The translations under genes and the position numbers were made by a program. The notes under the pieces are model-generated. The model ran no database searches, had not been told where the DNA came from, and saw only the letters and a program-made list of their open reading frames with translations. Of a stretch of DNA of 9,093 bases, positions 940 through 9,093 are shown piece after piece (the first letter of the stretch is position 1; every line of letters starts with the position of its first letter). This DNA is from a virus (taxonomy: Duplodnaviria; Heunggongvirae; Uroviricota; Caudoviricetes): the IMG/VR virus record IMGVR_UViG_2529293223_000005; one strand, given 5' to 3'.

Positions 940-1011
940 TGAAGTGGCACACTGAATTTGGCCACCTGAACAGAGGTGATATGCTCACCTCAGAACAACA
1001 CAGGTGTTCCA

Positions 1012-1314
1012 ATGAAAAAAAGAAATTTTAGCGCAGAGTTTAAACGCGAATCCGCTCAACTGGTTGTTGACCAGAAATACACGGTGGCAGATGCCGCCAA
1101 AGCTATGGATGTTGGCCTTTCCACAATGACAAGATGGGTCAAACAACTGCGTGATGAGCGTCAGGGCAAAACACCAAAAGCCTCTCCGATAACACCAGAA
1201 CAAATCGAAATACGTAAGCTGAGGAAAAAGCTACAACGCATTGAAATGGAGAATGAAATATTAAAAAAGGCTACCGCGCTCTTGATGTCAGACTCCCTGA
1301 ACAGTTCTCGATAA
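1012..1314 (+). CDS. IS911 OrfA (transposase N-terminal/regulatory protein, HTH plus leucine zipper)
   Basis: [100 protein letters not shown] matches my memory of IS911 OrfA. An A-AAA-AAG slippery heptamer lies at 1263-1269 near the 3' end, the programmed -1 frameshift site. The ORF-track start at 976 is an upstream in-frame extension. Confidence 0.85.
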
Positions 1315-1340
1315 TCGGGAAACTCAGAGCGCATTATCCT

Positions 1341-2180
1341 GTGGTCACACTCTGCCATGTGTTTGGGGTTCATCGCAGCAGCTACAGATACTGGAAAAAC
1401 CGTCCTGAAAAACCAGACGGCAGACGGGCTGTATTACGCAGTCAGGTACTTGAGCTACATGGCATCAGCCACGGTTCGGCCGGAGCAAGAAGCATCGCCA
1501 CAATGGCAACCCGGAGAGGCTACCAGATGGGACGCTGGCTTGCTGGCAGGCTCATGAAAGAGCTGGGGCTGGTCAGCTGTCAGCAGCCGACTCACCGGTA
1601 TAAACGTGGTGGTCATGAACATGTTGCTATCCCTAACTACCTTGAAAGGCAGTTCGCCGTGACCGAGCCAAATCAGGTGTGGTGCGGTGATGTGACCTAT
1701 ATCTGGACGGGTAAGCGCTGGGCGTACCTCGCCGTTGTTCTCGACCTGTTCGCAAGAAAACCAGTGGGCTGGGCCATGTCGTTCTCGCCGGACAGCAGGC
1801 TCACCATGAAAGCGCTGGAAATGGCATGGGAAACCCGTGGTAAGCCCGGCGGGGTAATGTTCCACAGCGATCAGGGCAGTCATTATACGAGCAGGCAGTT
1901 CCGGCAGTTATTGTGGCGATACCAGATCAGACAGAGTATGAGCCGGCGCGGAAACTGCTGGGATAACAGCCCAATGGAACGCTTCTTCAGGAGTCTGAAG
2001 AACGAATGGATGCCGGTGGTGGGTTACGTAAGCTTCAGCGAGGCAGCTCACGCCATAACGGACTATATCGTTGGATATTACAGCGCACTAAGACCGCACG
2101 AATATAACGGTGGGTTACCCCCAAACGAATCGGAAAATCGATACTGGAAAAACTCTAACTCGGTGGCCAGTTTTTGTTGA
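1341..2180 (+). CDS. IS911 OrfB (DDE transposase catalytic domain), normally expressed as an OrfAB fusion by -1 frameshift
   Basis: 279-aa ORF in the -1 frame relative to orfA, with transposase-like motifs (..[10 protein letters not shown].., ..[15 protein letters not shown]..). The orfB frame extends upstream of the first Met listed. The true N-terminus comes from the frameshift at 1263-1269. Confidence 0.85.
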
Positions 2181-2255
2181 CCACTTCAGATTGAGGTAGC
2201 CTGAGTTTAACGGACACTCCTTCCTGAAATAGAATGGCATCAGAAGGAGCTAATA

Positions 2256-2558
2256 ATGAGCAGAAAAACCCAACGTTACTCTAAAGAGTTCAAAGCCGAA
2301 GCTGTCAGAACGGTTCTTGAAAATCAACTTTCGATCAGTGAAGGCGCTTCCCGATTATCCCTTCCTGAAGGCACTTTAGGACAATGGGTTACCGCCGCCA
2401 GAAAAGGGCTCGGTACTCCTGGTTCCCGCACGGTGGCTGAACTGGAATCTGAAATTCTGCAACTGCGTAAGGCGTTAAATGAAGCTCGCCTTGAGCGAGA
2501 TATATTAAAAAAAGCAACAGCGTATTTTGCACAGGAGTCGCTGAAAAATACGCGTTAA
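2256..2558 (+). CDS. IS600 OrfA (HTH transposase N-terminal protein)
   Basis: 100-aa ORF MSRKTQRYSKEFKAEAVRTVLENQLSISEGASRLSLPEGTLGQWV...ERDILKKATAYFAQESLKNTR. RBS AGGAG lies 7 nt upstream. A7G slippery run at 2507-2514. Confidence 0.85.
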   Translation: MSRKTQRYSKEFKAEAVRTVLENQLSISEGASRLSLPEGTLGQWVTAARKGLGTPGSRTVAELESEILQLRKALNEARLERDILKKATAYFAQESLKNTR

Positions 2559-2593
2559 TCGAACAATGGCGACAACAATTTCCCATTGAAGCG

Positions 2594-3412
2594 ATGTGTC
2601 AGGTATTTGGTGTATCCAGGAGCGGTTATTACAACCGGGTACAGCATGAACCCTCAGACAGAAAACAAAGTGATGAGCGGCTAAAACTGGAGATTAAGGT
2701 GGCACATATCCGCACTCGCGAAACATATGGAACCCGGCGGCTCCAGACGGAGCTGGCAGAGAATGGCATCATCGTTGGTCGTGACCGACTGGCACGTCTT
2801 CGTAAGGAGCTAAGGCTACGCTGTAAGCAGAAACGCAAGTTCAGAGCGACTACGAACCCGAACCACAATCTGCCAGTTGCGCCAAATCTGCTGAACCAGA
2901 CGTTCGCTCCTACAGCACCAAATCAGGTCTGGGTGGCGGACCTGACGTATGTTGCCACACAGGAGGGATGGTTGTACCTCGCTGGCATCAAAGATGTTTA
3001 TACGTGCGAAATTGTCGGCTACGCCATGGGAGAGCGCATGACAAAAGAGCTGACAGGTAAAGCCCTGTTTATGGCGCTCAGGAGCCAGCGCCCACCTGCC
3101 GGGCTAATCCACCACTCTGATCGAGGTTCACAGTACTGCGCATACGATTACCGGGTCATACAGGAGCAGTTTGGTCTGAAAACATCAATGTCGCGTAAAG
3201 GTAACTGTTACGACAACGCTCCGATGGAAAGCTTCTGGGGAACGCTGAAAAATGAGAGCCTGAGCCACTATCGTTTTAATAACCGGGATGAAGCCATCTC
3301 AGTAATACGGGAATACATTGAGATTTTCTACAATCGTCAGCGTCGTCACTCTCGTCTGGGGAATATCTCCCCGGCAGCCTTCAGGGAAAAATATCATCAG
3401 ATTGCTGCTTAA
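2594..3412 (+). CDS. IS600 OrfB (DDE transposase catalytic domain), expressed as OrfAB by -1 frameshift
   Basis: 272-aa ORF with IS3-family transposase motifs (..HHSDRGSQYCA.., ..RKGNCYDNAPMESFW..), in the -1 frame relative to orfA. Confidence 0.85.
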   Translation: MCQVFGVSRSGYYNRVQHEPSDRKQSDERLKLEIKVAHIRTRETYGTRRLQTELAENGIIVGRDRLARLRKELRLRCKQKRKFRATTNPNHNLPVAPNLLNQTFAPTAPNQVWVADLTYVATQEGWLYLAGIKDVYTCEIVGYAMGERMTKELTGKALFMALRSQRPPAGLIHHSDRGSQYCAYDYRVIQEQFGLKTSMSRKGNCYDNAPMESFWGTLKNESLSHYRFNNRDEAISVIREYIEIFYNRQRRHSRLGNISPAAFREKYHQIAA

Positions 3413-3455
3413 AAAAAGAACAAATGGTAGTGCCCGCTATTGCCAGTACACCTCA

Positions 3456-7656: not shown

Positions 7657-7707
7657 AGTGCCTCCAATTTTATTAGCAACACAAATACTTATCAAATAGC
7701 TAGCCTG

Positions 7708-7735
7708 TTGACATTTAAATCAGGTAAGCTAATAT
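7708..7735 (+). promoter_or_regulatory. PR-like promoter for the Cro-like gene, within the cI-cro divergent control region
   Basis: TTGACA (7708-7713), 16-bp spacer, TAATAT (7730-7735), then GGAGG (7751-7755) and ATG at 7762. The region carries the palindromes TAGCTA/GCTAGC and ATTTAAAT, and AGCTAGCCTG / CAGGTAAGCT flank the -35. A weak-consensus candidate PRM (TAATAA -10) lies on the minus strand at about 7663-7700. Operators were not resolved. Confidence 0.5.
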
Positions 7736-7761
7736 CGGAAAATTGAAATGGGAGGATCTCT

Positions 7762-8001
7762 ATGACTCTTGACGAGTACTTGAGACAAAGCTCTATCAGA
7801 CAAGCCGATTTTGCGGCGATTGTTGGAGTTTCTCAGGGATTTGTCAGTGGGGGTATTACAGGGAGATACATGCCTCAGGGGCGGAAAGCCATTGAATGGG
7901 CAAAAGCTACAGACTGGAATGTAACTCCCCATGAACTAAACCCGCATGACTACCTAAACATGGAAGATGGTATTCCGCTTCATGTAAGGCAAACAGCCTG
8001 A
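7762..8001 (+). CDS. Cro-like HTH DNA-binding protein (Cro/C1-type), assigned by position and HTH motif
   Basis: 79-aa ORF divergent from cI, with a strong RBS and a helix-turn-helix signature (SIRQADFAAIVGVSQGFVSG). Confidence 0.6.
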   Translation: MTLDEYLRQSSIRQADFAAIVGVSQGFVSGGITGRYMPQGRKAIEWAKATDWNVTPHELNPHDYLNMEDGIPLHVRQTA

Positions 8002-8023
8002 TAACCCTCCATCGGAGGTGTGA

Positions 8024-8305
8024 GTGAACAGGCAAATCAAAACGGTTATGCCCGATCAGTACTGTGATGCTGATCGGGACTGGATACAGGAGCAATTGTT
8101 ACAGCTAGACCCGACCACCAGGGTAAAAATTGCAGCAGAGTACGCGAGAGTGTACCAGGAAGAGTGGGACAAGGAGCCTGTATCGTTCAGGAAGGGCAAC
8201 AGGGCAAGACGGAGCGCCAACACCCGGTTACGGGTGTATGTCCAGAAGTACGCGAGAGCCAGCCGTGGCTGGATGCTTTCGCCAGTAGCGATACGGAAGG
8301 AATAG
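8024..8305 (+). CDS. Hypothetical basic protein in the cII position (93 aa, GTG start)
   Basis: ORF starts 22 nt after the cro-like stop with GGAGG 5 nt upstream of the GTG. Arg/Lys-rich C-terminus (FRKGNRARRSANTRLRVYVQKYARASRGW). No similarity to lambda CII recognised. The RBS is half of a small inverted repeat (CCTCC-ATC-GGAGG at 8006-8018). Confidence 0.5.
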   Translation: MNRQIKTVMPDQYCDADRDWIQEQLLQLDPTTRVKIAAEYARVYQEEWDKEPVSFRKGNRARRSANTRLRVYVQKYARASRGWMLSPVAIRKE

Positions 8306-8718
8306 ATCTCATCAAGGTTATTATTTTTTTGTGAAATGATTCCGCATGAAATCATTGCGCTTGAAATTTTACTAAGAAGGGGGTAAGGGGGCAGATCTGT
8401 AACATCCGTGCCTGTAAGGGCACTACCAGAGGAAGGCAGCTCCATAGGTTAGGTAGATCACTGTATAGGGTGAGATGGTTTCTGACGAAATTGTTATTAT
8501 GCTAACCATTACGGTGGAAATAGTACCATACTCATCAAACATGTGGTTATCAGCCTGCTCGGAAACAAATTCTACACCGGAAAAGACAAGGTCACGTTTG
8601 ATTATGTGCTGGCTGCCAAATTGCGTGATGCCGGACTGGCGATCGAACGTAATTATCTGGTTGATATGGCAACGGTAAGCGCGGATTCGTCGATATCATG
8701 GTCGTTGCCCCATCTGGT

Positions 8719-9093
8719 TGAAGTGGCACACTGAATTTGGCCACCTGAACAGAGGTGATATGCTCACCTCAGAACAACACAGGTGCTCCAATGAAAAAAA
8801 GAAATTTTAGCGCAGAGTTTAAACGCGAATCCGCTCAACTGGTTGTTGACCAGAAATACACGGTGGCAGATGCCGCCAAAGCTATGGATGTTGGCCTTTC
8901 CACAATGACAAGATGGGTCAAACAACTGCGTGATGAGCGTCAGGGCAAAACACCAAAAGCCTCTCCGATAACACCAGAACAAATCGAAATACGTAAGCTG
9001 AGGAAAAAGCTACAACGCATTGAAATGGAGAATGAAATATTAAAAAAGGCTACCGTGCTCTTGATGTCAGACTCCCTGAACAGTTCTCGATAA
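8719..9093 (+). mobile_element. Second IS911-like copy, partial in window (left end plus orfA), same orientation as the first
   Basis: Matches 940-1314 with two single-base differences seen (1007 T vs 8786 C; 1277 C vs 9056 T). It runs off the right edge of the window. Confidence 0.9.
8791..9093 (+). CDS. IS911 OrfA (second copy; Ala to Val near C-terminus, Val to Ala in the upstream in-frame extension)
   Basis: Same protein as the orfA at 1012-1314 apart from ...KKATVLLM... versus ...KKATALLM.... Stop at 9091-9093. Confidence 0.85.

Follow-up and report, generated by a model that had tools for sequence, protein, structure and literature searches.

Tn9, with its two IS1 copies, is a composite transposon in which the insertion sequence (IS) arms are directly repeated. 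In Shigella genomes, IS-driven decay of prophages and rearrangements marked by IS copies are a textbook condition, and an IS600-flanked defective Shiga toxin (stx) prophage of S. dysenteriae 1 was reportedly described by McDonough and Butterton in 1999. The subject of this analysis is a stretch of 9,093 nucleotides (nt) of DNA from a virus of the Caudoviricetes (IMG/VR record IMGVR_UViG_2529293223_000005; the whole stretch is called the window below), in which the left end of IS911 occurs twice in the same orientation around an immunity region, the toxin-antitoxin genes hicAB and a copy of IS600. A sequence-only reading of this DNA had seen in it a composite-transposon-like arrangement. The locus is very probably a decayed lambdoid prophage at the lambda attachment site (att-lambda), on its ybhC side, in an S. 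boydii-type chromosome, with the two IS911 copies left over from separate, unrelated events rather than serving as transposon arms. The remnant has been eroded by IS600, by IS911, by an illegitimate join and by point decay. Its components (IS911, an IS911 fragment, IS600, a lambdoid prophage remnant and HicAB) are all standard, and nothing in them suggests a new mechanism.

The window corresponds to positions 2240-11332 of the 3.27-Mb contig L001 of assembly GCA_002968245.1, and the same 9093 nt are found with 100% identity in a 126-kb contig (AFGE01000023.1) of GCA_000211975.2, which is listed as Shigella boydii 5216-82 (PMC8342411). The best complete E. coli genome record covers at most 55% of the whole window.

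The two IS911 copies

A repeat search of the window recovered a direct repeat family at 936-1235 and 8715-9014 (99% identity, spacing 7779), and alignment together with ungapped comparison placed the left tip of IS911, TGAAGTGG, at 940 and at 8719, where the longer left-end sequence reads TGAAGTGGCACAC... at both positions. Both approaches confirm what had been noticed at the outset, that the 5' 375 bp of IS911 recur at 8719-9093 in the same orientation. The elements concerned, with their left and right terminal inverted repeats (IRL and IRR), open reading frames (ORFs) and flanks, are as follows.

937..939, left GAT of the target duplication of IS911 copy A; only one GAT is present in the empty-site contig L010
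940..2188, plus strand, IS911 copy A, complete, 1249 bp, with both inverted repeats and an open OrfAB frame
Parts of copy A: IRL 940-975; orfA 1012-1314; A6G site 1263-1269; orfB frame open to 2180; IRR 2153-2188
2189..2191, right GAT of the same target duplication, forming a 3-bp spacer between the IS911 IRR and the IS600 IRL
2192..3455, plus strand, IS600, complete, 1264 bp; orfA 2256-2558, orfB ORF 2594-3412
8716..8718, GGT, left flank of IS911 copy B; relatives go on with GAACGG
8719..9093, plus strand, IS911 copy B, with IRL and intact orfA (8791-9093); the first 375 bp of a 697-bp 5' fragment

Between the copies lie 6530 bp (2189-8718), in agreement with the earlier estimate of about 6.5 kb, and the segment includes IS600, hicAB, a cI-type repressor, cro and an ORF in the cII position, so that the repressor and the toxin-antitoxin module attributed to it are indeed present. 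The 375 bp common to the two copies inside the window (940-1314 and 8719-9093) differ at exactly the two positions that had been counted, IS nt 68 (T at window 1007, C at 8786) and IS nt 338 (C at 1277, T at 9056), and a 375-bp repeat at 99.5% identity is not chance. When the sequence beyond the window end is included, 697 bp are common to copies A and B with 5 mismatches (99.3% identical), and these differences uphold the view that the pair is not a very recent duplication. The left flanks also differ as had been stated, GAT (937-939) for copy A and GGT (8716-8718) for copy B.

Copy A has the properties of a complete IS911 element of the IS3 family, including a length of about 1250 bp, 36-bp imperfect terminal inverted repeats ending TG...CA, an orfA of 100 amino acids (aa) with orfB in the -1 frame at an A6G site, recorded Pfam domains HTH_Tnp_1 and rve, and a target duplication of the 3 bp (occasionally 4 bp) typical of this element, here GAT/GAT. 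The slippery site, A AAA AAG, lies at IS nt 324, and the orfB frame is open from there to the end. Over its full length copy A is 99.7% identical to E. coli elements of the same 1249 bp that carry the IS911 annotation, the label given to this first element in RefSeq E. coli records is "IS3-like element IS911 family transposase," and its 36-bp IRR is the same as the published IRR oligonucleotide (PMC2909936). Copy A is still able to transpose alone.

The window ends copy B at the orfA stop codon, and the truncation of this copy is therefore invisible within the window. In the contig, copy B extends 322 bp past the window end, matches copy A over IS911 nt 1-697 and then diverges completely, joining the interior of yfaX, the gene of an IclR-family regulator upstream of rhmD (yfaX homology starts at L001 11647). 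Copy B keeps its IRL, its orfA and ~375 nt from the start of the orfB frame, and has lost the DDE domain and the IRR; with one of the two terminal inverted repeats missing and the transposase gene incomplete, it counts as a fragment derived from IS911 rather than as an element. In the synaptic complex of IS911 the IRL and the IRR are bridged, and the spacer of the circle junction is 3-4 bp (PMC2909936). Because copy B has no IRR for such a complex to bridge, nothing that relies on its right end transposes: the fragment cannot move, and OrfA is the most that it can make.

The OrfA variant of the copy B type (A to V near the C-terminus) was seen in only two S. boydii assemblies and one metagenome contig (L016; ENA ERZ27259263 k141_101491, variant at 6001-6303). 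That contig also has an IncFII RepA, a ParE-type toxin gene, IS66 and a group II intron reverse transcriptase, which suggests a plasmid-borne relative of copy B.

At the crossover between copy B and yfaX, a three-way alignment with the junction shows that IS911 and the K-12-type yfaX have 8 bp, ATCCCTAA, in common. Such a microhomology is the signature of an illegitimate join, not of a transposase reaction. Beyond the window the two assemblies agree in the coordinates of their gene calls over the IS911/yfaX join, and each has a truncated 157-aa IclR_C product of yfaX; the base identity of the two assemblies covers the 9093-nt window including the first 375 nt of copy B, and the join was base-compared in GCA_002968245.1 only. 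The IS911(697)/yfaX junction has no exact match among GTDB species representatives, and a contiguous match to any of the junctions IS911-GAT-IS600, phage/IS911-B and IS911-B/yfaX is absent from 5,426 complete E. coli genomes.

The relative age of the copies follows from a related lineage. Logan contig L010 (ERR200451; common to 5 samples) runs from the truncated integrase gene (int') through a single GAT into IS600 without IS911, reading ...GCTTCAGTGAT|TGAGGTAGCC... and, in fuller form, ...GCTTCAGTGAT|TGAGGTAGCCTGAG.... This is the empty site of copy A, and its k-mers are impossible to derive from the filled arrangement. From the same run, contig L003 stops 29 bp into IS911 with an identical phage/IS911-B junction, as do contigs L002 and L005 from other runs. 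This sister lineage thus has copy B without copy A, so that copy B was in place before the lineages split and copy A came afterwards, in a single lineage. Copy B is the older, and copy A is a recent, separate insertion; the pair did not arrive as the arms of a single insertion, nor did one recently give rise to the other.

IS600, the join to yfaX and the proposed history

IS600, which adjoins the right GAT of copy A, is a complete 1264-bp element with terminal inverted repeats. It is highly identical to annotated IS600, for which the RefSeq E. coli label is "IS3-like element IS600 family transposase," and has orfA and orfB with a frameshift, for which the gene calls of L001 give a frameshifted transposase of 385 aa. 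The element has GAT on one side and TTC on the other, which differ and do not form a 3-bp target duplication, and these unmatched flanks therefore point to an IS600-associated deletion that would have removed the N-terminus of int, xis and the left early region. IS600 itself is intact and its surroundings are rearranged. The hexamer TTCAGT, present left of copy A and right of IS600, was considered as a duplication and rejected, as the offsets do not fit 3 bp and the right-hand hexamer is part of the recT tail.

The IS911 IRR, GAT and the IS600 IRL (window 2153-2227) together make a heterologous IRR-3 bp-IRL arrangement that mimics the circle junction of the IS3 family. Six of the first 8 nt of the IS600 IRL are common to the IS911 tips (TGAGGTAG in IS600, TGAAGTGG in IS911). 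A circle-junction-like promoter at this point was also rejected, the sole promoter-like site in 2100-2300 (2207-2235) lying wholly inside IS600. Insertion of IS911 next to ends resembling inverted repeats is said to have been described by Loot et al. in 2002 (EMBO J) and by Rousseau et al. in 2008 (J Bacteriol), papers to which PMC2909936 and PMC7986276 refer. A passage of PMC7986276 describes the targeted insertion of IS911 briefly. The position of copy A fits targeting of this kind, which would have been directed to the IS600 end.

The same breakpoint in int is found at two other loci, both recovered by a scan for the int'/TGA junction and compared with window 930-2200. In S. flexneri SFBU1023 (CP182556.1, L012 4920-6210) the int' breakpoint is identical (...GCTTCAGTGAT|) and is followed by IS600 in the opposite orientation; in "E. 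coli" ECMA0423 (CP178302.1, L013 550-1840) int' ends at the same nucleotide, likewise followed by an opposite-orientation IS600. The far side of IS600 joins the pflA/pflB region in both, and phage early genes are absent. Recombination between two IS600 copies is unable to flip the IS relative to its outer flank, and these arrangements suggest that one site was hit more than once independently, or that a transposase was at work. Possible explanations include a hot spot for IS600 and the inactivation, in parallel, of the int of the same prophage. The two loci bear on IS600 and say nothing of the IS911 pair.

On the other side of the remnant, with ybhJ-ybhC in K-12 orientation, the order in L001 after copy B is yfaX', rhmD, yfaV, yfaU, rpnE, glpC, glpB, glpA, which is the reverse of the K-12 order and strand (L001 11647-20240 compared with K-12 2.352-2.362 Mb and 0.807 Mb). 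The join ties K-12 ~0.807 Mb (att-lambda) to ~2.362 Mb (yfaX), 1.55 Mb apart, with the polarity of an inversion. The midpoint of these two positions, ~1.585 Mb, is presumably close to the K-12 terminus, which makes the junction replichore-symmetric. At this endpoint of a rearrangement, terminus-symmetric and with a truncated IS as its marker, the IS911-B/yfaX join either created the inversion or trimmed an older IS911-mediated one. In the same gene run, rhmD is in two pieces (218 + 182 aa) in GCA_002968245.1 and a single 401-aa gene in S. boydii 5216-82 (L001 12337-13541 compared with L008 1-674 and L014 7308-8513); the split reflects a frameshift or else an error of sequencing in one of the assemblies.

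Taken together, these observations make a history of five steps the most likely. A phage with a lambda-type int and attachment site and a Stx-phage-like early region would first have integrated at att-lambda, a step directly visible at the locus. IS600 would then have ended up between int codon ~44 and the last ~110 bp of recT; both junctions are observed, and an IS600-associated deletion probably took the int N-terminus, xis and other early-left genes. In a third step, seen directly in the broken gene, copy B would have inserted in a small ORF upstream of the replication helicase gene. A microhomology join through ATCCCTAA would next have linked IS911 nt 697 to the interior of yfaX, the junction being observed and the pathway presumed. 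This would have cost the locus the IS911 DDE domain, the IRR and all remaining phage DNA here, leaving an inversion-type, terminus-symmetric junction relative to K-12. Finally, a recent complete copy A would have inserted exactly 3 bp from the IRL of IS600, duplicating GAT; the insertion, its duplication and the empty site are observed, and targeting is the proposed cause.

Several considerations weigh against this account. The 3.27-Mb contig was examined in part, and both an inversion and a deletion are compatible with the join, the 3' part of IS911 and the rest of the prophage being then either elsewhere or lost. The order in which copy B precedes copy A comes from one related lineage and from short-read contigs. 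A missing target duplication at IS600 has explanations besides an adjacent deletion, and the targeting of copy A to the IS600 end is deduced solely from its position.

Alternative readings of the IS911 pair

Of the other readings, the one that survives best treats the pair as a substrate for recombination, in which RecA deletes or excises a 7779-bp unit through the direct repeats and so produces a presence-absence polymorphism of the immunity genes and HicAB. RecA-dependent deletion between direct IS copies is generally established, and a direct repeat of 697 bp at 99.3% identity is in place; RecA-dependent homologous recombination would be the only reaction that the IS911 pair still permits. 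The deletion would remove 7779 bp with IS600, hicAB and the immunity genes; the chromosome would keep the stump, and a circle unable to replicate would carry a complete hybrid IS911. However, no deletion product was found among the very few genomes covered, in which every assembly or contig that reaches the junctions has them intact, and lineages without copy A are incapable of the event. Polymorphism by this route is accordingly a doubtful, if tenable, proposal.

A more ambitious reading starts from the junction of copy A with IS600 and from the oppositely oriented IS600 at the same int nucleotide in S. flexneri. It holds that copy A reflects natural targeting to the IS600 inverted repeat, that this site or the ends of IS600 serve as a recurrent landing pad for IS3-family elements, with parallel inactivation of prophages across Shigella lineages, and that the hybrid junction could be a joint IS911-IS600 substrate. 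Taken as a whole, this is improbable.

Far less probable again, and indeed scarcely tenable, is the composite transposon itself, in which direct IS911 arms would allow the transposase to move a 7.8-kb unit with IS600, hicAB and the immunity genes. Within the window the arrangement does resemble the direct-repeat arms of a Tn9-type element, and copy A encodes an apparently intact OrfAB. The functional outer ends that such a unit needs, an IRL on the left and an IRR on the right, are nonetheless not both there, as copy B stops at nt 697 without an IRR or a catalytic domain and IS911 needs both inverted repeats in one synaptic complex (PMC2909936). With the outer IRR nonexistent, IS911 transposase cannot move the bracketed 6.5 kb. 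Nor does one target duplication surround the whole unit, the GAT/GAT belonging to copy A alone and the left flank of copy B being GGT, and the sister lineage has copy B and not copy A. The block occurs, moreover, in a single chromosomal context, in two assemblies, with few Shigella genomes covered and with none of its three junctions present in the complete E. coli genomes searched. The sequence-only reading had itself named a second copy without a right end as grounds for giving up the composite structure, and had proposed comparing related genomes for the presence or absence of the segment. The first is what was found, and it refutes the composite structure; the second gave one context only. 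Mobilisation of the intervening segment falls with it, the copies having arrived separately (GAT/GAT at copy A, an empty site, a truncated copy B).

An assembly artefact, with the truncation of copy B or the yfaX join arising from collapsed repeats, can be dismissed almost entirely: IS elements commonly break or mis-join assemblies, and the rhmD split in one assembly, intact in the other, hints at sequence errors in one of them, but the junction lies in unique sequence, two separate assemblies are 100% identical over the 9093 nt with the same downstream gene-call coordinates, and a join through 8 bp of microhomology bears the mark of a biological event, unlike the usual collapse of repeats.

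The prophage remnant and its described relatives

The reading of the locus as a decayed lambdoid prophage at att-lambda draws on the sequences around and between the IS copies, the features of which are given here.

1..939, minus strand, int', lambda-type tyrosine integrase, 3' 312 codons; the first ~44 codons are gone and the window starts at the stop codon
3456..8718, early and immunity remnant, lambdoid and Stx-phage-like, with mosaic matches to prophages of Shiga toxin-producing E. coli (STEC)
3456-3569, minus strand, recT' tail; the right side of IS600 lies in the last ~110 bp of recT, by comparison with STEC prophages
3536-3817, minus strand, gamL
3838-4119, minus strand, PHROG1635 ORF
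4131-4343, minus strand, kil
4414-4701 and 4735-5211, minus strand, Rha/antirepressor, split
5107-5194, minus strand, C4 antisense RNA (Rfam, 78.6 bits)
5219-5295, minus strand, isrK (Rfam, 61.6 bits)
5954-6208, plus strand, hicA (HicA_toxin domain, Pfam E-value 1.2e-11)
6205-6549, plus strand, hicB (HicB domain, Pfam E-value 7.4e-20)
6937-7695, minus strand, cI-type S24/HTH repressor
7762-8001, plus strand, cro-type HTH
8024-8305, plus strand, cII-position ORF
8543-8718, plus strand, 5' part of a 129-aa ORF, broken by IS911-B

The DNA of int' is 98.8-99.1% identical to the int of phages 2B8, HK97, 434 and HK106, with a recorded Pfam Phage_integrase domain; its translation is open across 1-939, and the gene is broken at codon ~44, at the GAT. 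To the left of the window lie ybhJ, ybhC and attL (the left arm of K-12 attB, the core and a lambda-type phage arm, at L001 2154), so that a lambda-type integrase stands beside attL and adjacent to ybhC, as in a prophage at att-lambda. The attL core, GCTTTTTATACTAA (L001 2154-2168; also L008 and L012), has 5 T in both S. boydii assemblies and in S. flexneri, compared with 6 T in K-12 attB, and a 1-nt deletion in the att overlap region would by itself hinder excision. No tRNA genes were found in the window.

To the right of the immunity genes, STEC relatives have the 129-aa ORF followed by a DEAD/DEAH helicase, DUF7146, DUF1367, ninG, ninH and Q, and in one relative also by tRNAs and stx2AB; on the left they keep an intact recT. 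None of the helicase-to-Q or stx2 genes of the relatives is present at this locus. The proposal that copy B parts the genes in the cro and cII positions from a replication module is borne out by these relatives, in which the helicase and the genes beyond it come next. The ORF broken by copy B also has a 1-nt deletion at window ~8667 (GATAT-GGCAAC, compared with GATATGGGCAAC in two STEC relatives), a sign of further decay.

Within the remnant, the ORF at 4735-5211 has pRha and Ash domains, and the ORF at 4414-4701 matches only the C-terminal part (141-232/232) of antirepressor PHROG 1760; the split antirepressor is probably a pseudogene. The C4 RNA and isrK lie just upstream of, or overlapping, the start of the Rha/Ash antirepressor gene, and a 24-nt palindrome at 5061-5096 adjoins this group. 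Judged from these sequence matches, the C4/isrK/antirepressor set is a putative P1 immI-like or Gifsy-like antirepressor control module. The genes hicA and hicB, which overlap by 4 nt, form a predicted HicAB type II toxin-antitoxin pair. The cI-cro immunity region and hicAB have been kept, and they may still protect against superinfection or make the remnant more stable.

The case shows how an apparent composite transposon in a cut-off window can be the coincidence of two IS events of different ages. It is also a detailed further example of IS600 and IS911 dismantling prophages and marking large rearrangements in Shigella genomes. Its significance beyond such bookkeeping is small.

Comparison with Tn9-type composite transposons identifies a shared outline, a passenger segment flanked by two like-oriented copies of a single IS. 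In contrast to those elements, the right arm here is without an outer inverted repeat and a catalytic domain, the left arm has a duplication of its own, no duplication surrounds the whole unit, and the unit was not found in other contexts. The targeted insertion known for IS911 is a parallel for copy A, which is separated by exactly 3 bp from the tip of an inverted repeat of the IS3 family, in the IRR-3 bp-IRL geometry of an IS911 circle junction. Here, however, the target end belongs to another IS (IS600), a normal 3-bp duplication was made, and the case is one natural event.

For the phage DNA, the nearest relatives are Stx2a-converting and related STEC lambdoid prophages, to which 3456-8718 corresponds in the order recT-gamL-kil-antirepressor-hicAB-cI-cro, in mosaic blocks of 92-97% identity. 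It differs from these in that the best phage record covers at most 55% of 3456-8718, in the lambda type of its int and attachment site, and in the loss of everything downstream of the first ORF of the replication module. The condition of the locus as a whole is that of the IS-eroded cryptic lambdoid prophages of Shigella, with which it shares a lambdoid gene order, a truncated int, the loss of replication, lysis and structural modules, multiple insertions of IS3-family elements (IS600 and IS911) and junctions to distant chromosomal genes. It stands apart from them in that the remnant is without a toxin gene and keeps only the early and immunity part with hicAB, and in that one of its boundaries, instead of coinciding with the end of an IS, is a microhomology join within one.

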